Assembly: GCF_001017655.1 (NCBI RefSeq)
Contig: NZ_CP010904.1
Coordinates: 1,020,001-1,052,000 of the forward strand
Length of the DNA stretch: 32,000 nt
DNA from: Kiritimatiella glycovorans
GTDB lineage: Bacteria; Verrucomicrobiota; Kiritimatiellia; Kiritimatiellales; Kiritimatiellaceae
Direction: 5' to 3'
A program made the position numbers and the translations under genes. Below, in pieces: positions 3-12,566 of the stretch (its first letter is position 1; every line of letters starts with the position of its first letter). A model generated the notes under the pieces. The model did no database searches, was not told the origin of the DNA, and saw only the letters and a list, made by a program, of their open reading frames with translations.

Positions 3-2930
3 ATGGATCGTCAGGTCAAGATTCGCGGCGTGCGCGTGGAACTGGGCGAGATTGAAAGTGTCATCCGGCGGCATCCGGGTGTGGATGATGCCGTTGTTCT
101 TTTGTGCGACGGGCTTCCGTATGGCTACATCACGGCGGCGGGGGATGCGGCGCCCGAGGATGCTGTGCTTCGCGCCTACCTCGTGGAGCATCTTCCGCGT
201 GTTCTGATCCCCGTGTCGTTTACGGCGCTGTCCGGCTTTCCCCGGACGCTGAGCGGGAAGGTGGACCGTAAGGCCCTGGAGCGCGGGGCGTTTGAGTCGG
301 TTGCGCAGGACGGTGCCGCAGAACGCGCGGGGCCGGCGCGAGCGGCGACAGAGGACGAGTTGCAGAGGCTGGATACGTGGAACCTCGAGGCGCAGCGGCC
401 CCGCGTGGAGGGAGAGACGGCGGACCGCCTGTTTGATATCGCATGCCTGATGTACCCGGACCGTGTGGCATTACGGCAGGAGGGACGCTCCCTGAGCTAT
501 CGTGAGCTGGGCCGCCTGGCGAACCGGATCGCGCTTCGGTTGCGCAGGGAGGGAATAGGGGCTGAGGATCCGGTACTGATCTGTGGACGGCGCTCCATCG
601 AAGCGCTCGTGGCTATGCTGGCGGTCGTGAAGGCCGGGGCGACGTATGTCCCGGTGGATGCCGGAGTACCGGAACGTCGCATGCGCGAGGCGTGCGGGGA
701 TTGCGGGGCGAGGGCCGTGTTCTGCCCGGAGGCGATCCGGAATGTTTTTGATGCGTGCGCGCTGTGGCTCGATCTGGACGATCCGGAAGGCGAGGGCCGC
801 GGGGAAGGTTCTCATCCGCCGGAGGTGAAGCCGGATGATCGTCGCCGCGCGTACATCATCTACACCTCCGGGTCAACCGGTCGTCCCAAGGGAGTCGAAA
901 TCGAACACCGCTCGCTCGTCAACCTCATCCGTTTTTACGTGGAGCGGCTTGAACTCACGGAAAAGGACCGGAGCACCATGCTGGCGAGCATCGCCTTCGA
1001 TGCCTCGGTTGCCGACGGGTGGCCATACCTGTGCTGCGGGGCGTCGGTGTACATTCCGCCCGACGAAAAGCTCCTCGATCCTCCCGCGCTCTTCCGGTGG
1101 ATCGGAGAGGAGGGGATCACGGTGTCCTTCGTGCCGACGGCGCTCGCGGAACGGCTTCTCGAATCGGATCTGTCACCGAAGACCTCGCTGCGGTATCTGC
1201 TGACGGGAGGCGACCGGCTTCGCGTCCGGCCCGCGGCGGGGTTGTCATTCGGGGTGATCAACACCTACGGCCCGACCGAGAACACGGTCGACAGCACGTG
1301 GGATGTCGTCCGCCCCGGCGGAGAAGAGGAGGGTCCGCCTCCGATCGGTCGTCCGATAGCCAATGTAGGGGTCTATGTGCTCGACCCGGACGGCGTGAGA
1401 GTCGCCCCCGGGGAAGAGGGTGAACTGGTGCTGGGGGGGCGGAACGTCGCGCGCGGCTACCTCGGGCGTGGAGACCTTACCCGTGAACGTTTTCCGGTCG
1501 ATCCGTTCTCCGGGGATGGGGCGCGGATGTACCGGACGGGCGACCGGGTACGGTTCCGGGACGACGGGCGACTCGATTTCCTCGGGCGCAAAGATGATCA
1601 GGTGCAGATCCGGGGCCATCGTGTAGAGCCGGGCGAGGTCGAGCATCTCCTGCGCGAAACCTCGGGAGTACGGGACGCTGCGGTGCGCCCGATGGAGGAG
1701 GACGGCGCGGTAACCGCGCTGGCGGCGTGGGTGGTGCCGGAACGACCCGGGGCCGCGGAAACCCTGACGGCGGCGCGTGAGGCGGCTCGTGCAGAACTTC
1801 CGGCCTACATGGTTCCCGCGGCCTGGGCGATGCTGGATGAACTGCCTCGGAACGCCTCGGGTAAAGTCGACCGTGAGGCGCTGCCCGCGCCGAACGTGTT
1901 CGAATCGGCGGGGGCGGGAGAGGTTCCGGCGACAGAGCGGGAACGCGAGCTGGCCGCGGTGTGGGAGGAAGTACTCGATGTGGGCCGCATCGGACGCGAC
2001 GACAATTTTTTTGATCTGGGCGGCCATTCGCTGATGGTGCTCAATCTCGTCTCGCGCGTGAAAGACGTGCTGGGGGTCCCGCTTTCCGTCGCCGCCGTGC
2101 TGCAGCGTCCCACCCTGCGCCGCATGGCGGAGGCGCTCGAAGATACCCCGGGCGGCGTCGGGCCGGGATCTTCTGCAAGGGTTCCCGTGCGCGAGGAGGG
2201 CAAAGATGAGCCCGTCTTCTGCGTGCCCGGTGCGGGGGGAGGGGTGAACCGGTTTCGCGGCATGGTCGAGCACTTGAAGCCGGGGCGGCCGTTTTACGGT
2301 CTGGAACCGCTGGGGCTGTCGCGCGCGTTGAATGAAGGGCCCATTGAGGATGTGGCAGAGGCGTTTCTGGACCTCGTGCGCGAGGTTCAGCCGCACGGGC
2401 CGTATTTTCTGGGAGGGTTCTCCTACGGCGGGCATGTCGCCTACACGATGGCACAACGGCTTCGGCGCGAGGGCGAGGAGGTCGCCCTGCTGTTTCTGAT
2501 CGAGGCCTACGGACCCGATGTTCGCTGCGGTCCTGCGGTGCGCGCCCTGAGGTATGCCGGCAATGTACTGCGACTCAAGCCGGCGGACAAGGTGCGTTAC
2601 GTAAAGGACAAAATTCGCTGGTTCCGGATGCTCATCAGAAACTGGTGGCACGTGAGCCGCCGGAGCCGGGATGAGGCCGACGAACTTTCGAGCATCCTGC
2701 GTGCGCATATGGAGGCCGCCGCGTGCTACGACCCGGAGCCGTACGATGGGCGGATGGTGCTGCTGCGTGCCGAGAGGCCGCCGAACAGTGCGCCGCTGCG
2801 CAGAGATGCGGGTTGGAAACGCATGGTCCGGGGCGGGATGGACGTGCACTTCGTCCCCGGCGATCATTACACCATCTTCGATGAAGGCCATCACGAGGCG
2901 ATGGCCGAGACGATCGGCCGCTACCTCTGA
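3..2930 (+). CDS. Non-ribosomal peptide synthetase, C-terminal part (5' end cut by window edge): A-domain tail / complete A domain / PCP / thioesterase
   Basis: The translation opens with A8-A10-like motifs ([13 protein letters not shown] ... SGKVDRKAL). A complete adenylation domain follows ([59 protein letters not shown]). Then come the carrier motif [11 protein letters not shown] and a C-terminal alpha/beta-hydrolase with GFSYGG (GxSxG). Stop at 2928-2930. Confidence 0.9.
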
Positions 2931-5900
2931 GGTGCGTCCCGCACCTCGGTTTCTCCCTCTTCATGGTAGTCCTGCAGCGCGCGGACGGACCAGTCGCCTT
3001 CCCGCACGGTCCGGATCGCGGCGATCGTCGCGCGGGCGCCGGATTCGGTGGTGATGATCGGAAGATTGCGCAGCACCGCTTCGGAGCGGATGCGGATCTC
3101 GTCCATGCGCGAGACCGGGCCGCTGGGCGTATTGATCAGCAGGTGCACCTTGTCCTCGCGCATCAGGTCGGCGATGTTCGGTTTGCGTCCGCTCGCGAGT
3201 TTATAGGTCTCGGTCACTTCGAGCCCGTATTCGCGGAGCACCGAGGCAGTCCCTTCCGTGGCGAAGATCGAAAAGCCCAGTTCGCTCAGCTCGCGACCGA
3301 TCTCGCACACCCAGTCCTTGTCCCGGTCCTTGGCGCTGAGAAACACGGCGCCGCCGGTCGGGAGCTGCTGGCCGGCGGCGATCTCCGCCTTCCAGTAGGC
3401 CGTCTCGAAGTCGCGGTCGATGCCCATGACCTCGCCGGTCGACTTCATTTCCGGTCCGAGGATGGGATCGACCCCCGCAAACCGGTTGAAGGGGAAGACC
3501 GCTTCCTTGACGGCATACCATTTGGGCGCCGGCGCCCGCTTCGCGAGCCCCAGTTCCTTGAGCGAGCGGCCCAGCGAGACCTGGGTGGCGATATTGGCCA
3601 GCGGGACGCCGGTTGCCTTGCTGACGTACGGCACCGTCCTCGACGCGCGCGGATTGACTTCGAGCACGTAGAAGTCGTCGTCTTTCACGGCGATCTGGGT
3701 GTTCATCAGGCCTACGACATTCAGTTCGATCGCCATGCGTGCACAGGCGTCCTCGATGTTCGCGATCATCTCCGGCTTGAGCGTGTTGGGAGGGATGGTG
3801 CAGGCGCTGTCGCCCGAATGCACCCCGGCCTCCTCGACGTGCTCCATCAGTCCGCCGATGTAGACCGACGACCCGTCGCAGACGAGGTCGACGTCCACTT
3901 CGATCGCGTTTTCAAGGAAGCGATCGATCAGCACGGGGTGGCCCGCGCTGGCATTGAACGCGGCGTAGGTGAAGGTGACGAAGTCCTGTTCGTCGTAGGC
4001 GATCATCATGGCGCGCCCGCCCAGCACGTAGGAGGGACGGATCATCACCGGGAAGCCGATCTCGTGGGCGAGGGCCAGGGCCTCGTCCATGGTGGTCGCC
4101 GTGCCGCTGGCCGGCTGTTTGAGCCCGGTGCGGTTGAGCAGGTCGCGGAACTGGGCGCGGTCCTCCGCCGCGGCGATGCTTTCCGGCGAGGTGCCGAGGA
4201 TCGGCACGCCCGCGCGGAGCAGGTCGAGGGCGATATTCAACGGCGTCTGGCCGCCCATCTGTATGATCAGCCCGAGCGGGCGTTCATTCTCGTAGATGTT
4301 CATCACGTCCTCGAACGTCAGCGGCTCGAAATAGAGTTTGTCCGAGGTGTCGTAGTCGGTGGAGACCGTCTCCGGGTTGCTGTTCACCATGATGGCCTCG
4401 TAGCCCATCTCCCGCAGTGCGTTGACCGTGTGCACGCAGCTGTAATCGAATTCGATCCCCTGACCGATCCGGTTCGGGCCGCTGCCGAGCACGATCACGC
4501 TCTCGCGGTCCGTTCGGCGGGTCTCGTCGAGCGTGCCGTCGCAGGTCGAGTAAAAGTAGGGGGTGTAGGCCTCGAATTCGCCCGCACAGGTATCGACGAG
4601 ATGATAGACGGGCTTCAGGCCGGCGTTCTTGCGTTTCTCGCGGAACGCCCAGCGGTCTTCGCCGCGCAGCGCGGCGATCTGGTCGTCGGAGAACCCGATC
4701 CGTTTCGCCTCGGAGAGCAGGGCGGGATCGAGTTCGCGGCCTTTCGGGACCTCGATCAGCGCATGCTCCATCTCTACGATCTGGGCGATATTATCGATGA
4801 ACCACGGGTCGAGGTGTGTCATTTCCGCGATCTTCTCGATTGAATAGCCGTCCTTGAGCGCGCACTTGATCGCGATGCAGCGTTCGGTGCGGGTGTTCAG
4901 GAGATACTCGTCGAGCCGCTCGCGCGGCACCCGCGACTCCGCTTTGAGGTCGAGTCCGTCGACGCCGATCTCCAGGGACCGGAAGGCTTTCTGGAGCGAT
5001 TCCTTGAAGTTGCGGCCGATCGCCATGGTCTCGCCGACCGACTTCATGCTGACGCCGAGATCCGTCTCCGCGCCGGGGAACTTCTCGAAGGCGAAGCGCG
5101 GAAGCTTGACCACGCAGTAATCGATCGACGGCTCGAAACAGGCGGGCGTCTCGCGGGTGATGTCGTTAGGCAGTTCATCGAGTGTGTAGCCGACCGCCAG
5201 TTTGGCCGCCAGCTTGGCGATCGGAAAACCGGTGGCCTTGGAGGCGAGGGCGGAGGACCGCGAGACGCGCGGGTTCATCTCAATGACCGCGAGACGCCCC
5301 GTTTCAGGGTGGATACAGAACTGGACGTTGGATCCCCCCGTTTCCACGCCGATCACGCGCATGATCCGCAGCGAGGCGTCGCGCATGACCTGGTACTCGC
5401 GGTCGGTCAGCGTCTGGGCGGGGGCCACGGTGATGCTGTCGCCGGTATGCACGCCCATCGGATCCATGTTCTCGATCGAGCAGATGATCACGCAGTTGTC
5501 CTTGTGATCGCGCATCACTTCCATCTCGAATTCTTTCCAGCCGAAGACCGACTCCTCGATGAGCACCTCGCTGCTGAGGCTGGCCTTGAGGCCGTTTTCG
5601 ACGATCCGGTTGAACTGTTCCCAGTCGTGGGCGATGCCGCCGCCGGTGCCGCCGAGCGTATAGCTGGGGCGCACGATGATCGGGAACCCGAGCTCATGCT
5701 CCGCGAGGCGCTGCGCCTCCTCCAGCGAGTGGACGTGGAAACTCTTCAGGCACTCGATTCCCGCCTCCTCCATGGCGGCCTTGAACAATTCGCGCTCTTC
5801 ACCGCGTTCGATGGCGTCGGGATTGGCGCCGATCATCTCCACCCCGTATTTATCGAGGACGCCGCTTTTGAACAGCGTCATGGAGATGTTCAGTCCCGTC

Positions 5901-6178
5901 TGGCCGCCGAGGGTGGGGAGGATCGCATCGGGCCGTTCCCGTTCGATGATTTTCTCCACCGCCTCGGGGGTGAGCGGCTCGACATAGGTCCGGTCCGCCG
6001 TCTGCGGGTCGGTCATGATCGTCGCCGGATTGCTGTTGATCAGCGTGACCTTATAGCCCTCCTCCTTGAGGGCCTTGCAGGCCTGGGTGCCGGAATAGTC
6101 GAACTCGCAGGCCTGACCGATGATGATCGGCCCGGACCCGATGATGAGGATGTGGGAAAGGTCAGTGCGTTTGGGCAT
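2921..6178 (-). CDS. carB: Carbamoyl-phosphate synthase large subunit
   Basis: 1085 aa. The N-terminus [42 protein letters not shown] is a textbook CarB start. It has two ATP-grasp halves (second [22 protein letters not shown]) and an MGS-like C-terminus. Confidence 0.97.
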
Positions 6179-6200
6179 AGGAACTCCAATTAGTTTGAGT

Positions 6201-6420
6201 TAGAAACCTGAAACCTGAGACCTGAGTAAGAGGGGGATAGGGATTGAGTGGGAAACCTGAAACCTGAGACCTGAGTAAGAGGGGGATAGGGATTGAGTGG
6301 GAAACCTGAAACCTGAGACCTGAGTAAGAGTGGGGATAGGGATTGAGTGGGAAACCTGAAACCTGAGACCTGAGTAAGTGGAGATTGAGTGGGAAACCTG
6401 AGACCTGAATCCCGTGCGGG
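6201..6420. repeat. Tandem repeat array, about 4.5 units (49/49/50/42/30 bp) of GGGAAACCTGAAACCTGAGACCTGAGTAAG-AGGGGGATAGGGATTGAGT
   Basis: Read directly: units start at 6201, 6250, 6299, 6349 and 6391 (last one partial). Each has an internal 7-nt periodicity (GAAACCT GAAACCT GAGACCT GAGTAAG). The track ORF 6190..6456 is just this repeat translated. Confidence 0.95.
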
Positions 6421-6452
6421 CTTACTGAGTAAAGAAGACTGAACTTGGGGGG

Positions 6453-6800
6453 TCATGTTTTTCCGCCTTTGGCGTTTTTTGACATCGTGACAAATATTGA
6501 AATCAATTCGTTAAGCTCTTCTTCGATGGGGTGGCAGCGGTCTTCCGATATTCCGCACCCGCGCACGAGCAATTCAATCCAGAGCAGTGACTCGTCGGCT
6601 TCCTGAGTGCAGATCTCAATTTTTGAAATAAATTCAGCTTTGGTTCTGGCTCGCGAGGCCTCCCTGTAATTCGCCGCTATGGATGTTCCGGAACGAAGAA
6701 TCTGTTTCCCGGCCACCTGAATATCGTATCTTGAAGATCGAGACAAAGAGAGATACAGCCTGATAACATGTACGGCGAGGTTCGTCGTTCGCGTGCGCAT
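6453..6800 (-). CDS. Four-helix-bundle protein, 23S rRNA intervening-sequence protein family (Avd-like fold family)
   Basis: QILRSGTSIAANYREASRARTKAEFISKIEICTQEADESLLWIELL matches my recollection of the hallmark helix 2-3 pattern of the PF05635/TIGR02436-type family. ATG at 6800; an upstream in-frame GTG at 6821 is the track start. The gene is clearly AT-richer than its neighbours. Confidence 0.8.
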   Translation of the reverse strand: MRTRTTNLAVHVIRLYLSLSRSSRYDIQVAGKQILRSGTSIAANYREASRARTKAEFISKIEICTQEADESLLWIELLVRGCGISEDRCHPIEEELNELISIFVTMSKNAKGGKT

Positions 6801-6921
6801 CGTGCTTTTTGCGGCTCCCACATTCGTCTCCAGTGTGAATGGCGGAGACCCGCATCCCGCGCGGCTCCCATTGAACCCGCGTTAGGTTTTTTTTATACCT
6901 CCGTGTACAATCGTTATAATT

Positions 6922-7050
6922 CTTACTCAGGTTTCAGGTCTCAGGTTTCAGGTTTCCCACTCAAGCTTTCTTACTCAGGTTTCAGGTCTCAGGTTTCAGG
7001 TTTCCCACTCAAGCTCTCTTACTCAGGTTTCAGGTCTCAGGTTTCCCACT
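6922..7050. repeat. Tandem repeat array, about 3 units (48/48/33 bp) of CTTACTCAGGTTTCAGGTCTCAGGTTTCAGGTTTCCCACTCAAGCT; inverted partner of the 6201-6420 array
   Basis: Read directly: units start at 6922, 6970 and 7018. The core is the reverse complement of the left-array core plus one extra GTTTCAG heptamer. A C10 run (7055-7064) and the guaA stop follow. Confidence 0.95.
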
Positions 7051-7064
7051 CCCTCCCCCCCCCC

Positions 7065-8636
<1,572 letters not shown>

Positions 8637-8663: not shown

Positions 8664-9758
8664 TCAACCGTCGTGGCTGCGCATCAGTTCCGTGAATTCT
8701 TTGAACAGGTAAAAAGAGTCGTTCGGCCCGGGGCAGGCCTCCGGGTGATACTGCACGCTGAAGAGCGGCTTCTCACGGTGCCGCAGGCCTGCGCAGGTCC
8801 GGTCGTTCAGGTTTACATGCGTGACCTCGATCTCTTCGGGCAGACCCTCGCCCCTGACGCAGAAACCGTGATTGTGACTGGCGATCTCGACCTTGTGCGT
8901 GCGGTGATCGAGGATCGGCTGGTTCGCGCCGCGGTGGCCGAACTTGAGCTTGTAGGTCTCCGCGCCGAGCGCCAGCGCGATCATCTGGTGTCCGAAGCAG
9001 ATTCCGAACAACGGCCGGCCGGAGTCGATCAGCTTGCGCACTTCCGCGGCCACATCCTCCGCGCCCTCGGGATCGCCGGGGCCGTTGGAGATAAAAATCC
9101 CGTCCGGATGCTCCGCGAGGATCGCTTCGGCCGGCGTGGTGCAGGGGAAGACGCGACACTCACAGCCGAGCTGCTGCATGAGCCGGAGCTGGTTGGTCTT
9201 GATCCCGCAGTCGACGACCGCGACCTTGAACTCCGCGCCGGGCATGCCGCCCTCGGGCCACGTGTACGGCGCTTCGGCGGTGACTTCCCGGATCAGGTTG
9301 CGCCCCACGAGGGAAGGGGCGTTACGGGCTTTTTCGACCAGGCTCTCCGGATTCAGATCGCCGGTGGATATGACACAGCGCATGGCGCCCTTGTCCCGGA
9401 TATGCAGGGTGATGGCCCGTGTGTCCACGCGCTCAATTCCCATGACGCCGTTCTGTTCGAGATATTCCGGAAGACTCCACCGGCTCCGCCAGCTGCTGGG
9501 GATCCGGCTGCACTCGCCGACCACGAGACCGGCGGCGAAAATGCGGCGCGATTCGACGTCCTCGGGGTTCACGCCGTAATTGCCGATCAGCGGGTAGGTC
9601 ATAGTGACGATCTGGCCGTAGTAAGAGGGATCGGTCAGGATCTCCTGGTATCCGCTCATGGCGGTGTTGAAAACCAGTTCGCCCGAGGTTTCCCCCTCTC
9701 CGGCAAAGGAACGGCCCCTGAAGAAGGTTCCGTCTTCGAGTGCGATCAGTGCGTCCAC
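8664..9758 (-). CDS. carA: Carbamoyl-phosphate synthase small (glutaminase) subunit
   Basis: Typical CarA sequence (LIALEDGTFFRG, VFNTAMSGYQEILTDPSYYGQIV, GICFGHQ). I prefer the GTG at 9758 (M-DALIALEDG..., GAGG 7 nt upstream) over the track ATG at 9842, which sits inside the T-tract of the upstream terminator. The 5' end is uncertain. Confidence 0.9.
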   Translation of the reverse strand: MDALIALEDGTFFRGRSFAGEGETSGELVFNTAMSGYQEILTDPSYYGQIVTMTYPLIGNYGVNPEDVESRRIFAAGLVVGECSRIPSSWRSRWSLPEYLEQNGVMGIERVDTRAITLHIRDKGAMRCVISTGDLNPESLVEKARNAPSLVGRNLIREVTAEAPYTWPEGGMPGAEFKVAVVDCGIKTNQLRLMQQLGCECRVFPCTTPAEAILAEHPDGIFISNGPGDPEGAEDVAAEVRKLIDSGRPLFGICFGHQMIALALGAETYKLKFGHRGANQPILDHRTHKVEIASHNHGFCVRGEGLPEEIEVTHVNLNDRTCAGLRHREKPLFSVQYHPEACPGPNDSFYLFKEFTELMRSHDG

Positions 9759-9840
9759 AGCGGTACCTCGCGTGTTGATCGTGTTGATGATATTCGGAGC
9801 ATGTTCTTTACGCGGCGGGGGGGATGCAAACACTTTCCAC

Positions 9841-9876
9841 ATAAAAACCGCCGCCCGGCCTGACGGCGGGCGGCGG
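9841..9876 (-). terminator. Rho-independent terminator downstream of the PPIase gene
   Basis: 10-bp GC stem CCGCCGCCCG (9848-9857) / CGGGCGGCGG (9867-9876) with a 9-nt loop. On the minus strand it is followed by TTTTTAT (9847-9841). Confidence 0.75.
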
Positions 9877-11171: not shown

Positions 11172-11501
11172 ATGGATCATATGGATAACATGGAACACTT
11201 CCGGTGCCGCCGCTGCGGCCAATGCTGCCGACGCCGCGGCTACGTGTGGCTCGAAACGCACGATGTCGAACGCCTCGCGGAATTTCTCGGCATCGACACC
11301 GACACGTTCCTCGACCGGTTTACCCGCATCGCCGGCCGGGCACGCGATCTCAGCCTCATCGAAAACGACGACGGAAGCTGCGTGTTCCTGAAAAACGGAC
11401 GCTGCGAAGTCTACCAGGCCCGCCCACTCCAGTGCCGCACGTTCCCCTGGGCCTGGGGACAGGACGATCCCGAATGCCCCGGACTGGCGGAGTTGAGGTG
11501 A
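11172..11501 (+). CDS. YkgJ-family cysteine-cluster protein (UPF0153, putative Zn/Fe-binding)
   Basis: CRRCGQCC (CxxCxxCC) near the N-terminus, then CVFL...GRCEVYQARPLQCRTFP. GGAGG lies 4 nt before the ATG at 11172; the track start at 11040 looks over-extended. Confidence 0.7.
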   Translation: MDHMDNMEHFRCRRCGQCCRRRGYVWLETHDVERLAEFLGIDTDTFLDRFTRIAGRARDLSLIENDDGSCVFLKNGRCEVYQARPLQCRTFPWAWGQDDPECPGLAELR

Positions 11502-11504
11502 GGG

Positions 11505-12495
11505 GATCAGGGGGAGATCGTGGCAGTCGGGGGGGAGTCGTGGCAATCGGGGGAAATGTCGTTCCTACGAGCGAAGCGTTTCCACGAGGCGCGTAGCGCC
11601 GTTTCCACGAGCGAAGCGTGGAAGATCGTGTCAACGGCCCTCGCGGGCCTCGTGGCAGTCGGGGGGAGAGTCGTGGCAATCGGGGGAAATGTCGTTCCTA
11701 CGAGCGAAGCGTTTCCACGAGGCGCGTAGCGCCGTTTCCACGAGCGAAGCGTGGAAGATCGTGTCAACGGCCCTGACGGGCCTCGTGGCAGTCGGGGGGA
11801 GAGTCGTGGCAATCGGGGGAAATGTCGTTCCTACGAGGCCGAAGGCCGTTCCTGCGAGCGCAGCGTTTCCCCGAGGCGCGTAGCGCCGTTTCCACGTTCC
11901 CTACGAGGCCGAAGGCCGTTTCCACGTCCCCCCCGAGCGCAGCGTGGAAGATCGTGTCAACGGCCCTTGCGGGCCTCGTGGCAATCGGGGAGATCGTGGC
12001 AATCGGGGGAGATCGTGGCAGTCGGGGGAAATGTCGTTCCTACGAGGCCGAAGGCCGTTTCCCACGAGGCGCGCAGCGCCGTTTCCACGTTCCCTGCGAG
12101 GCCGAAGGCCGTTCCGACGAGGCGCGTAGCGCCGTTGCCTCGAGCGAAGCGTTTTGACGAGGCGCGCAGCGCCGTTTCCACGAGCAGGGGAGAGTCGTGT
12201 CAACGGCCCTGACGGGCCTCGTAGCAATCGGGGGAATGTCGTTCCTACGAGGCCGAAGGCCGTTTCCCCCGAGGCGCGTAGCGCCGTTTCCACGTTCCCT
12301 ACGAGGCCGAAGGCCGTTCCGACGAGGCGCGTAGCGCCGTTGCCTCGAGCGAAGCGTTTTGACGAGGCGCGCAGCGCCGTTTCCACGTCCCCCCCGAGCG
12401 CAGCGTTTCCACGAGGCGCGTAGCGCCGTTTCCACGTTCCCCACGAGGCCGAAGGCCGTTGCCACGTTCCCCCCCGAGGCGCGCAGCGCCGTTTC
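11505..12495 (+). repeat. Complex ~1-kb array: five higher-order copies (141/133/193/243/275 bp), each with iteron-like heads, 3-10 GNA-triloop mini-hairpin modules and (copies I-IV) a GGCCC-N4-GGGCC tail hairpin
   Basis: Read directly. Copies start at 11511, 11652, 11785, 11978 and 12221. The modules are ACGAG-[GGCGC GTA/GCA GCGCC | GGCC GAA GGCC | GC GAA/GCA GC]-GTTTCC, about 27 in total, all with GNA on the plus strand. ORFs across the region on both strands give repetitive low-complexity translations. Confidence 0.9.
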
Positions 12496-12566
12496 TAATT
12501 GAACCCGACGGCAGGATCGCGCATGCTGTACCTCCTGCCGATGCAAATCCAACCATGGAGACGGAT

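Follow-up and report, generated by a model that had tools for sequence, protein, structure and literature searches.

Introduction

The described elements closest to the locus reported here are the intervening sequences (IVSs) of bacterial 23S rRNA that carry an open reading frame (ORF). In the 23S IVS of Coxiella, whose stem measures 28 bp, heptamers (GACAGAT) are arranged in tandem just 5' of the start of the ORF; the 5' cut made by RNase III falls at the first heptamer, and strains or species differ in the number of heptamers (PMC4990558). A heptameric repeat is also found at an RNase III substrate in Haemophilus influenzae, where the (ATCTTTC)n array of hmw constitutes one arm of a long hairpin cleaved by this enzyme, and where a change in repeat number requires both RNase III and transcription (PMC12721329). 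In the intergenic DNA of bacteria, heptameric SSRs are over-represented; their positions are conserved while their lengths vary, and slippage of the polymerase has been put forward as an explanation of this variation (PMC4692102).

Here we analyze a locus of Kiritimatiella glycovorans at which a four-helix-bundle (4HB) gene, enclosed by inverted arrays of heptad-containing repeats, is situated between guaA and carB. The stretch of DNA analyzed (contig NZ_CP010904.1, positions 1,020,001 to 1,052,000) comprises 32,000 nucleotides and is referred to below as the window; all positions are counted from its first letter. A preliminary description of this locus had reported an insert containing a 4HB ORF and inverted tandem arrays, and each of these elements was found where it had been placed.

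Results

A four-helix-bundle gene between guaA and carB

The 4HB ORF has carA, guaA, carB and a PPIase as neighbours. Synteny in Kiritimatiellales identifies a conserved carA-guaA-4HB-carB block, which opens with carA (8664-9842, minus strand; TIGR01368, 481 bits). It is followed on the same strand by guaA, the upstream cistron, which encodes GMP synthase (7065-8636; NF000848, 792 bits; PF00117 and PF00958), and, beyond the insert, by carB, which encodes the large subunit of carbamoyl-phosphate synthase (2921-6178, or 2921-6190 including its ribosome-binding site; NF003671, 1632 bits). The GC content is 0.49-0.52 in the insert and 0.62-0.67 in the flanks, a difference of 11-15 points. Scans of the minus strand for promoters and terminators identified no promoter-like or terminator-like site in 5900-7400, in agreement with the earlier remark that no terminator separates these genes; since none was found in the guaA-carB spacer, a read-through transcript is plausible. 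An Rfam search of the same interval returned sub-threshold chance matches only, with no family match and no rRNA.

The 4HB ORF (6453-6821, minus strand) encodes 122 amino acids from a GTG at 6821. Its translation scored 56.5 bits against PF05635 (curated cut-off 33.8) and 75.9 bits against TIGR02436 (curated cut-off 24), which shows it to be a member of this S23p/Avd-like family and bears out its earlier assignment, made from the sequence alone, to the four-helix bundles of 23S rRNA IVSs. The ORF had originally been delimited as 6453-6800; this interval is contained in 6453-6821, and its 115-aa product from ATG 6800 is 100% identical to the NCBI K. glycovorans 'four helix bundle protein', but the GTG at 6821, which is preceded at a distance of six nucleotides by a GGAG (6831-6828), appears the more likely start. 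This GGAG belongs to a leader of about 100 nt (6822-6919, minus strand) that separates the 5' arm from the ORF. The leader has no counterpart in the orthologs described below, where the heptads reach the start codon, so that in K. glycovorans, with its own Shine-Dalgarno sequence and 100-nt leader, the 4HB start lies outside the stem.

An AF2 model of the protein (pLDDT 94.9) consists of a single-domain bundle of four helices, which span residues 2-26, 32-56, 61-89, and 93-119. Comparison of the model by Foldseek gave TM scores of 0.8-0.9 to PDB 2RLD, 0.71-0.82 to 2GSC, and 0.66-0.82 to Avd (4DWL). The 2RLD entry, which is listed with five chains and was matched with E = 2.9e-18, was the only one matched by a PDB sequence-profile search; 2GSC and Avd emerged in the fold search alone, and sequence identity to Avd is just ~10-12%.

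Several other identities for the locus or its parts were considered and rejected. A search of the ORFs for domains found no transposase or integrase gene next to the cassette. A diversity-generating retroelement (DGR) was rejected because the window ORFs examined included no reverse transcriptase; the corresponding domain was absent from the 17 other large ORFs tested, and the ORFs examined yielded neither a template repeat nor a variable repeat. The arrays are not CRISPR-like, as their units are contiguous and have no spacers, and the 3' arm does not resemble an intrinsic terminator or attenuator, as it is followed directly by a ribosome-binding site and not by a U-run. An 88-aa ORF that overlaps the left array (6190-6456) had no family match and is probably spurious.

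Two inverted arrays bracket the gene

The right array, which is the 5' arm in the sense of the RNA (6920-7064, minus strand), was detected by TRF at 6920-7045 as 2.6 copies of a 48-bp unit with 98% matches, and a partial third copy extends to 7063. Read as RNA, it has a G10 run ahead of 2.6 tandem 48-nt units, each composed of TTGAGTGG, four GARACCT heptads, and GAGTAAGAAAGC. This arm is purine-rich, directly adjoins the guaA stop codon (7067-7065), and contains stop triplets in 3/3 frames, so that all frames are closed. The left array, or 3' arm (6195-6423, minus strand), was detected at 6195-6378 as 3.7 copies of a 49-bp unit with 97% matches; an additional degenerate copy extends to ~6423, giving ~4.5 units of 49 nt overall. 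It is pyrimidine-rich, is the reverse complement of the core of the 5' arm, and contains three heptads per unit, and its last unit is followed immediately by GGAG (6187-6184), the ribosome-binding site of carB.

Each of three left units contains a perfect inverted match to a 31-nt segment (6934-6964) of the right array, and the longest inverted arms between the two arrays reach 52 nt at 83%. With four heptads per unit on the right versus three on the left, pairing of the arrays leaves a 7-nt bulge and permits multiple registers, as the preliminary description had proposed. A 30-mer of the repeat unit had five matches in the window and none in 100 shuffles. Within both arrays, TRF resolved sub-arrays of period 7, that is, 7-nt units arranged head to tail in tandem in intergenic DNA. 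No second site with the repeat unit was found in the 32-kb window, where the cassette is present in one copy.

The arms are predicted to pair with each other

The minus-strand RNA of 6170-7075 has an MFE of -387 kcal/mol, compared with -275 +/- 8 kcal/mol for its shuffles (z = -13.8), and in the MFE structure the two arrays pair with one another; the expectation that they would pair far better than shuffled controls was thus confirmed. When folded alone, each arm did worse than 200/200 shuffles (z = +2.9 for the 5' arm and +2.7 for the 3' arm). Terminal stems enclosing the ORF were also predicted for a minimal ortholog cassette from Pontiella (z = -5.1) and for a Bacteroides cassette (z = -6.4), and RNAalifold derived a 29-bp consensus stem from 12 pairs of ortholog arms.

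Covariation within these orthologs was essentially absent (RNAalifold term +1.57; two pairs with compensatory changes). At the variable heptad position, the two arms are correlated with a Fisher p of 9e-5, a value that is inflated because the register was picked to maximize matches. The mismatches between arms showed no significant sense-strand bias (18 G.U vs 12 A.C), so the inverted repeat may be maintained at the level of DNA.

The site and the arms are conserved across Kiritimatiellales

The carA-guaA-4HB-carB arrangement, with the 4HB gene at the same guaA/carB site, was found in 13 other species-representative genomes of Kiritimatiellales as well as in metagenome contigs. The arms of these orthologs are short, with just 4-6 heptads, which read (GAAACYT)n on the upstream side of the ORF and (AGGTTTC)n on its downstream side; they are 17-36 bp long and directly abut the ORF. 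Repeat numbers vary freely among relatives, and intermediate arm expansions are present at three loci (L017, L031 and L048). The K. glycovorans cassette has an expanded version of the ortholog arms. Heptad arrays are confined to the cassette in the Kiritimatiellales loci, mostly ~8 kb each, and in the 32-kb window.

The guaA and carB genes of these Kiritimatiellales are only 67-77% identical. Among the 4HB orthologs, synonymous divergence is near saturation and the median dN/dS is 0.058, which shows strong purifying selection on the protein.

Heptad arms accompany 4HB genes in other phyla

PF05635/TIGR02436 proteins are very widespread, with thousands of database matches, and 4HB cassettes are hosted by operons with nucleotide, sugar, envelope, and defence functions as well as by 23S rRNA. 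In 23 of 24 independent genomic contexts from several phyla, at least one flank of the 4HB gene had 7 as its unique best period, and in 17/24 both flanks did; among control windows the figure was 42/1411. Wherever the flanking genes were determined, the cassettes run in the same direction as the operons that host them, and their arms exactly abut the stop codon upstream, both ends of the 4HB ORF (start and stop), and the ribosome-binding site downstream. In 14/24 contexts, the 42 nt that precede the 4HB start suffice to close every frame, compared with 19% expected from composition (p = 2.5e-5), whereas the 3' arm closes all frames in 2/24.

The heptad itself differs by lineage (CTGAAAC, TTGACAA, TAATTCG, ATTTTAG, GATGAAG, AATCGTA, and GTGGAAA), and its complement is present in the opposite arm wherever the arms of a lineage were read. 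This mirroring of lineage-specific heptads is covariation at the scale of lineages. A DUF1156/4HB/Swt1 context with the same heptad occurs on one cyanobacterial and one Chloroflexota plasmid. The arms of a Planktothrix cassette consist of the STRR1 unit AATCCCC. Xanthomonas and Nostoc, both rich in heptameric SSRs, encode 4HB proteins; GGGAATC heptads precede the Xanthomonas 4HB gene XCC0516, and Xcc repeat #15 overlaps its start. Low GC was observed for the 4HB ORFs of 26/26 loci, long-resident orthologs included, and is an intrinsic property of these ORFs.

The preliminary description had asked whether copies of the repeat always bracket 4HB ORFs; the link holds in one direction. The 7-nt sub-repeat is widespread without 4HB genes: 0/74 viral loci that contain it had a 4HB match, as did 3/120 metagenome loci, one of them with the match flanked by the repeat. 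Arrays of the same heptad sequence are common without a 4HB ORF and often lack an inverted partner, so the heptads may function independently of pairing. The converse link, from a 4HB gene to heptad arms, is very strong. How the heptad arrays of the viral and metagenome loci are oriented with respect to the ORFs next to them was uninformative, since the arrays close all frames and ORF calling is noisy in GC-rich DNA.

Discussion

A probable IVS-type element embedded in an operon

The analysis shows that the site of the cassette and its arms are conserved, that the arms are predicted to pair, and that arms of period 7 occur family-wide. The guaA-carB cassette is probably an old, vertically inherited, operon-embedded element of the IVS type. 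Its core is an apparently promoter-less 4HB gene of the Avd/S23p family, co-directional with guaA and carB and bracketed between them by inverted heptad arrays. Because neither arm folds on itself, the arms would pair with each other in a carA-guaA-4HB-carB read-through RNA, producing an extended duplex from which the ORF is looped out, and we infer that this duplex forms in vivo. By analogy with 23S rRNA IVSs and the H. influenzae hmw hairpin, it would most likely serve as an RNase III substrate, as a translational insulator, or as both; cleavage by RNase III and any effect on guaA or carB expression are both presumed. The 5' arm shuts all three frames just ahead of the 4HB start, and the stem would juxtapose the guaA stop with the ribosome-binding site of carB. 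In K. glycovorans, ancestral arms of 4-6 heptads would have grown into the 48/49-nt higher-order arrays, probably by slippage or unequal recombination, with complementarity retained during expansion and several pairing registers becoming possible.

The arrays might instead act as DNA, as a cruciform or hairpin, as a hot-spot of recombination or slippage, or as recombinase sites, RNA pairing being incidental. The lack of asymmetry between G.U and A.C mismatches and of covariation within orthologs would be consistent with such an element, and the arm expansions in K. glycovorans and at L017, L031 and L048 are indeed DNA-level events; heptameric SSRs, moreover, are over-represented intergenically and slippage has been proposed for them (PMC4692102). 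We nevertheless regard this explanation as unlikely in view of the sense-strand frame closure, which favours the 5' arm over the 3' arm (14/24 vs 2/24), the co-directionality of cassettes with host operons wherever flanking genes were determined, and the exact abutment of the arms to the surrounding stop, start and ribosome-binding signals. The Coxiella IVS and hmw, the two relatives that have been studied experimentally, act as hairpins of RNA that RNase III cleaves.

If the cassette acted purely as RNA in cis, the strong purifying selection on the 4HB protein would be left unexplained. This selection would be accommodated by a module of protein plus binding sites, in which a pentameric 4HB protein binds the heptads, in RNA or DNA, at about one per protomer, for autoregulation or as an RNP, and arrays elsewhere are further targets. 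Such a module would also fit the matches of the fold to pentameric 2RLD and 2GSC and to Avd of the DGR ribonucleoprotein (8UB7), the constancy of the period while heptad sequence shifts with protein clade, the minimal arms of 4-6 heptads, and the presence of 4HB proteins in SSR-rich Xanthomonas and Nostoc, with GGGAATC heptads ahead of Xcc0516. Heptad arrays, however, are abundant in contigs with no nearby 4HB gene, and the correlation between clade and heptad could arise simply because the ORF is inherited together with its flanks; we consider the module an improbable account of the locus.

The preliminary description had offered a mobile or selfish cassette as one possibility, and the AT-richness of the insert could be taken as a sign of recent transposition or horizontal acquisition specific to the guaA-carB spacer of K. 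glycovorans. GC 11-15 points below that of the flanks, ends that are inverted repeats, and the heptad and DUF1156/4HB/Swt1 context shared by cyanobacterial and Chloroflexota plasmids would all agree with mobility, and the presence of related cassettes in unrelated operons and phyla does imply insertion at some past time. That the insertion was recent is largely refuted, and we give it very little credence: 13 other Kiritimatiellales species carry the cassette at this site, with guaA and carB only 67-77% identical, dS is near saturation with a dN/dS of 0.06, low GC extends to long-resident orthologs and thus does not mark recent arrival, the repeat unit has no second copy in the 32-kb window, and no transposase or integrase gene adjoins. 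It is highly improbable, finally, that neutral expansions of spacer repeats came to flank an ordinary small 4HB gene as a functionless by-product with a coincidental resemblance to IVSs, since the free variation of repeat number between relatives and the commonness of heptameric SSRs with no assigned function would fit, but neutral slippage leaves unexplained the complementary inverted arrays, their presence in 17/24 contexts, the lineage-specific heptads, the retention of arms across an order, and the depletion of self-structure in each arm.

The interpretation of the cassette as an operon-embedded IVS-type element can be extended, tentatively and as a possibility that we rate below even, to 4HB genes at large. 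These would be widespread, promoter-less 'intervening sequences' of mRNA and rRNA with heptad arms as their functional ends; the 5' arm would stop ribosomes in every frame, pairing would loop out the insert or RNase III would excise it while the host RNA still works, and the pentameric protein would bind the heptads. To our knowledge, PF05635/TIGR02436 proteins outside DGRs have no known function, and neither do heptameric tandem repeats, which have been known since the cyanobacterial STRRs. The locus and its comparison with others tie the two together: gene and arms travel as a pair, and the 7-nt period is kept while the repeat sequence changes. If the extended proposal is true, it would assign a function to the long-unexplained heptameric SSRs such as STRR and would reveal a general way in which bacteria tolerate or use a gene inserted between translationally coupled cistrons. 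Both puzzles could be approached in tractable Bacteroides thetaiotaomicron, where BT_0352 lies between araD and araA, and in Xanthomonas (XCC0516).

Comparison with known systems

Literature searches revealed no publication in which 4HB genes are connected with heptad arms, and the gene and its inverted heptad arms seem never to have been described before as one unit. The statement in the preliminary description that no such system had been described holds for this combination, but not for its pieces: Coxiella heptamers, pairs of SSRs in Xanthomonas and Nostoc, and the hmw hairpin have each been described separately.

The locus indeed matches the architecture of ORF-bearing rRNA IVSs, to which it had originally been likened; the Coxiella IVS has heptamers upstream of the ORF and an RNase III cut at the first (PMC4990558). 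With the 23S rRNA IVSs of Leptospira, Coxiella burnetii, Brucella and the Xanthomonas-type S23p, the cassette shares the PF05635/TIGR02436 ORF family, tandem heptamers directly before the start codon, the lack of a promoter of its own, and, in K. glycovorans and its orthologs, terminal inverted repeats with a predicted stem enclosing the element and its ORF; minimal 4HB cassettes, at ~0.4-0.5 kb, are also of similar size. The host of the cassette is the guaA/carB spacer of a polycistronic mRNA, whereas the rRNA IVSs occupy helix 25 or 45. Its ORF is under strong purifying selection (dN/dS 0.06), whereas that of the Coxiella IVS is decaying, and the K. glycovorans arms, unlike those of 23S rRNA IVSs, are enlarged to higher-order repeats of 145 and 230 nt. 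The H. influenzae hmw1A/hmw2A hairpin resembles the cassette in that a transcribed 7-nt tandem repeat is an arm of a long RNA hairpin, but its other arm is a G-rich non-repeat, it encloses no ORF, and it lies in a 5' UTR and not between cistrons, with a role in adhesin phase variation.

Heptameric SSRs such as STRR (CCCCAAT and others), Xanthomonas GGGAATC and Nostoc GGGGA(C/T)T are likewise intergenic 7-nt units, mostly between co-directional genes, and they are transcribed and often occur as convergent inverted pairs; studies of these repeats describe them as G-quadruplex-forming, assign no function, and draw no link to 4HB/S23p proteins (PMC4692102). Most of them enclose no ORF, unlike the cassette. 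Avd, the accessory protein of DGRs, shares the four-helix-bundle fold, is a member of a pentameric family, and takes part in an RNA-protein complex (8UB7).

Inverted repeats that lie in operon spacers and fold in mRNA are also known as the Correia elements of Neisseria, ERIC, and REP/BIME, which are multi-copy, non-coding, MITE-like sequences with defined consensus ends; Correia elements are cut by RNase III, and mRNA stability is altered. In contrast to these, the cassette has arms made of heptad arrays, carries a conserved protein gene in its loop, and is apparently single-copy at a fixed orthologous site.

The guaA-carB cassette and its inverted repeat arrays

Tandem Repeats Finder identified two arrays between guaA and carB, a left array of 49-bp units (6195-6378; 3.7 copies, 97% matches) and a right array of 48-bp units (6920-7045; 2.6 copies, 98% matches). 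Both contain period-7 sub-arrays, and a repeat search added a degenerate copy on the left, to about 6423, and a partial copy on the right, to 7063. The arrays are inverted relative to one another: a 31-nt perfect arm of the right array (6934-6964) has its inverted match in each of three left units, and extended inverted arms reach up to 52 nt. Because each unit holds four heptads on the right and three on the left, pairing leaves a 7-nt bulge and allows several registers, which confirms the preliminary description of the arrays. A unit-derived 30-mer occurs five times in the window and not once in 100 shuffles. The GC content of the insert is 0.49-0.52 versus 0.62-0.67 in its flanks, where guaA, carB and carA all lie on the minus strand. 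A scan of 5900-7400 returned no promoter-like or terminator-like site on that strand, in keeping with the earlier remark that no terminator separates these genes, and no Rfam family match.

The repeat unit (6955-6971, 7003-7019) holds TTGAGTGGGA, from which the end of guaA at 7069-7085 (ATT GAG TGG GAG TGA) differs at the first base only; the complement is present in the 3' arm (the left array). Two readings fit: capture of the guaA 3' end in a duplicated unit, or TTGAGTGGGA being the element's own GAGTGGG motif. Comparison locus L030, whose upstream gene is something other than guaA, has that motif too.

The ORF scores above the curated thresholds of PF05635 and TIGR02436, as its proposed membership of the intervening-sequence (IVS) four-helix-bundle (4HB) family would have it, and is 100% identical to a K. 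glycovorans database entry, "four helix bundle protein". Its structure is confidently predicted as a four-helix bundle (pLDDT 94.9) resembling BT_0352 (2RLD), Xcc0516 (2GSC) and Avd (4DWL, 8UB7), the accessory protein of diversity-generating retroelements (DGRs). The NCBI form has 115 aa from ATG 6800. A leader of about 100 nt and a GGAG six nt 5' of GTG 6821 (window 6819-6831) are peculiar to K. glycovorans; orthologs have 121 aa, two of them starting with TTG or GTG. The sequence suggests that GTG 6821 is the true start, giving 122 aa.

The arms pair with each other in predicted RNA folds

The minus-strand RNA of 6170-7075 folds at -387 kcal/mol versus -275 ± 8 kcal/mol in shuffles (z = -13.8), with the left array paired to the right; the arrays are thus predicted to pair far better than shuffled controls, as first supposed. 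Folded singly, each array is less stable than every one of 200 shuffled versions of itself (z = +2.9 and +2.7), the behaviour expected if an arm is to stay available for a remote partner.

The cassette is old in Kiritimatiellales

The nearest homologues, at 56-68% identity, belong to Pontiella and other Kiritimatiellales, where the order is carA-guaA-4HB-carB and the position identical. Scanning a single genome per species gave 38 loci, 13 of which carry the cassette at the guaA-carB site (in a few short ones carA falls outside or is truncated), with identities to the window proteins of 67-74% for guaA and 70-77% for carB. Ortholog spacers are just 40-50 nt long and made of inverted heptad repeats: an upstream arm, (GAAACYT)x4-6, typically ends a few nt before the start codon, and a downstream arm, (AGGTTTC)x4-5, usually has the carB Shine-Dalgarno sequence at its end, with ungapped complementarity of 17-36 bp and 0-4 mismatches. 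The whole Pontiella cassette is predicted to fold with a terminal stem enclosing the ORF (z = -5.1).

Across the ortholog 4HB genes dN/dS has a median of 0.058; dS is about 1.5, and in many pairs it is saturated. On these comparisons selection has evidently preserved the protein over a long period of vertical inheritance. At 26 of 26 loci compared, drawn from many taxa (the window and loci within L001-L259), the 4HB ORF has a higher AT content than the genes beside it (mean difference 11.5 points), so the low GC does not point to a recent arrival. The shared site in 13 loci, the dS and this uniformly low GC show that the preliminary description was wrong to treat the cassette as an insert. AT-richness extends to very long-resident orthologs, and GC3 is likewise low.

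Given the short ortholog arms and this long history, the K. glycovorans cassette is the expanded extreme, and intermediate expansions occur at L017, L031 and L048. The simplest account would be that both arms grew by slippage or unequal exchange and stayed complementary. No heptad array lies away from the cassette in the 32-kb window or the Kiritimatiellales loci. At five loci (L024, L038, L040, L046, L047) the 4HB frame is broken by a stop or frameshift and the heptad arms are kept, which could be ORF decay or MAG sequencing errors. In Pontiella sulfatireligans (L001, 1865-2411), two small genes (DUF4160, DUF2442) lie between carA and guaA; that junction therefore also accepts small inserted genes.

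Heptad arms recur across the 4HB family

Relatives of the ORF with other neighbours, in Verrucomicrobiota, Desulfobacterota and a Paceibacterota-labelled MAG, have CTGARAC arrays upstream and GTYTCAG arrays downstream. Their co-directional partners are purC and xerD, ABC exporter and HlyD, or Wzc-like and exosortase genes; dihydroorotase and a dTDP-glucose dehydratase-like gene are each recorded as a first partner and an ABC ATPase as a second. Distant members share the design with other heptads: (AATTGAC)n/(AATTGTC)n in Bacteroides (BT_0352-like; araD-araA and aminotransferase-DAHP synthase; cassette fold z = -6.4), TAATTCG/TTACGAA between hypothetical-protein genes in Nostoc, ATTTTAG/TCTAAAA between DUF1156 and Swt1-HEPN in Gloeocapsa and Chlorohelix, TGAAGGA/ATTCATA between helicase and N6-methylase in Chlorohelix, AATCCCC and AATCGTA/GATTTAC between DrmD and MmeI in Planktothrix, and a GTGGAAA-type heptad between a DMT transporter and DUF4832 in Treponema. 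Complementarity is thus kept at the lineage scale, since the whole heptad changes between lineages and, wherever arms were read, the other arm stays its complement.

When periods 4-12 were scanned in the flanks of 24 independent 4HB contexts, period 7 was the unique best in at least one flank of 23 and in both flanks of 17, versus 42 of 1411 control windows scored the same way.

Many plasmid cassettes (L253, L254, L255, L257, L260) lie in defence operons, between helicase and N6-methylase, csx2 and cas1, DISARM DrmD and MmeI, or DUF1156 and Swt1-HEPN; the last context, with its ATTTTAG heptad, is common to a cyanobacterial and a Chloroflexota plasmid.

Heptad arrays also occur without 4HB genes

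The pattern (GARACYT)x3+TGA matched 74 viral stretches, all lacking a 4HB gene, and at least 120 metagenome stretches; among the metagenome matches listed, three had a 4HB hit, only one of them array-flanked. The heptad is thus not confined to 4HB cassettes, and the proposed tie between repeat and ORF holds one way: a 4HB gene implies heptad arms, and arms do not imply the gene.

Such 4HB-less arrays are common in viral (L052-L125) and, among the matches listed, metagenome (L126-L245) contigs; many stand immediately 5' of start codons in sense orientation (e.g. ...GAAACCTGAAACCTGAaccATG), and some are reverse-then-forward pairs. ORF-less forward-reverse hairpin modules (e.g. L030 5284-5584) and 50-60-nt higher-order units occur in Spartobacteria/Verrucomicrobia MAGs and viral contigs (also L030 1000-2000; L034 5075-6034; L082, L097, L103, L124). 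These units combine heptads, GAGTNAG and a purine-rich spacer, in close likeness to the K. glycovorans array units.

The window has another intergenic repeat region, about 1 kb long (11500-12500) and unrelated to the first, bounded by the end of a small Cys-rich ORF near 11501 and by a fabZ-like start near 12548. Its higher-order tandem units of 133, 193 and 205 bp are built of many small GC-rich hairpins, CGAGGCGCGTAGCGCCG, CGAGGCCGAAGGCCG and GGCCCTCGCGGGCC, with TTTCCA/TCGTGGCAA motifs in between.

Proposed mechanism and alternatives

We propose that operon transcription runs through the cassette and that the 5' arm (the right array) would end incoming ribosomes beside the cassette start. 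Because neither arm folds alone, the two would pair with each other into a duplex of 30-36 bp, or in K. glycovorans three helices of about 31-40 bp, looping out the ORF and bringing the guaA stop beside the carB ribosome-binding site. By analogy with Coxiella and hmw, a duplex of such length is most likely a canonical RNase III substrate, and cleavage would split the guaA, 4HB and carB messages. The net effect may be insulation, processing or regulation.

That the arms act at the DNA level is doubtful, but the orthologs lend this some support: compensatory changes are scarce in their stem (2 of 29 pairs; RNAalifold covariation term +1.57), which is conserved, not covarying, and arm mismatches show no sense-strand bias (G.U 18 versus A.C 12). 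Arm-to-arm concordance at the variable heptad position was 39 versus 9 (p = 9e-5), a value inflated by the choice of register. Against a DNA-level role stands an asymmetry in reading frame on the transcribed strand. Most 5'-arm heptads contain a stop triplet, and as a 7-nt period shifts the frame at each repeat, three such heptads close all three frames. Closure of every frame in the 42 nt preceding the 4HB start is seen in 14 of 24 contexts (19% expected from composition, p = 2.5e-5), versus 2 of 24 for the 3' arm read in sense (Fisher p = 5e-4), which speaks against purely symmetric DNA elements.

We give a similarly small chance to a module of protein plus binding site, which would be compatible with RNA pairing. 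The strong conservation of the 4HB protein suggests a role of its own; that it binds the heptad repeats, as Avd acts in the DGR ribonucleoprotein, is speculation by analogy. Neutral simple sequence repeats (SSRs) are very improbable, leaving unexplained why paired, complementary, lineage-specific arms surround one gene family, and a recent mobile insertion, contradicted by synteny, dS values and the universally low GC of 4HB ORFs, is just as hard to credit.

Relation to known systems

Parts of this architecture have published counterparts. The Coxiella 23S rRNA IVS has a 28-bp stem cleaved by RNase III, and its tandem heptamers, directly 5' of the ORF start, differ in copy number among strains, with the 5' cut at the first repeat (PMC4990558). 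The Haemophilus influenzae hmw (ATCTTTC)n tract is one arm of a long, RNase III-processed 5'-UTR hairpin, and changes in its repeat number require RNase III and transcription (PMC12721329). In Xanthomonas and Nostoc, Rehm et al. found heptameric SSRs to be over-represented between genes; these repeats are conserved in position, variable in length and transcribed, and include 70-75 convergent inverted pairs. The authors gave them no function, and S23p (4HB) genes are absent from the text (PMC4692102). Their repeat #15 (GGGAATC-type; X. campestris 622956-622983) runs across the start codon of XCC0516, which encodes the 4HB protein crystallised as 2GSC, and is 6 nt away from accB/bccP (XCC0517); XCC0516 therefore stands directly beside accB (PMC4692102, supplementary file 2). 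In a genome table of Flavobacterium columnare, gmk-4HB-nadD appears with about 35 nt between neighbouring genes (PMC5524665).

Our literature search found no paper joining the 4HB genes, heptad arms, IVS, SSR and hmw facts, and the family-wide heptad-armed architecture appears to be so far undescribed. We regard the finding as real and non-trivial. The structure given in the preliminary description stands, and the element fits best among the IVSs, as a variant housed in an mRNA and equipped with heptad arms.
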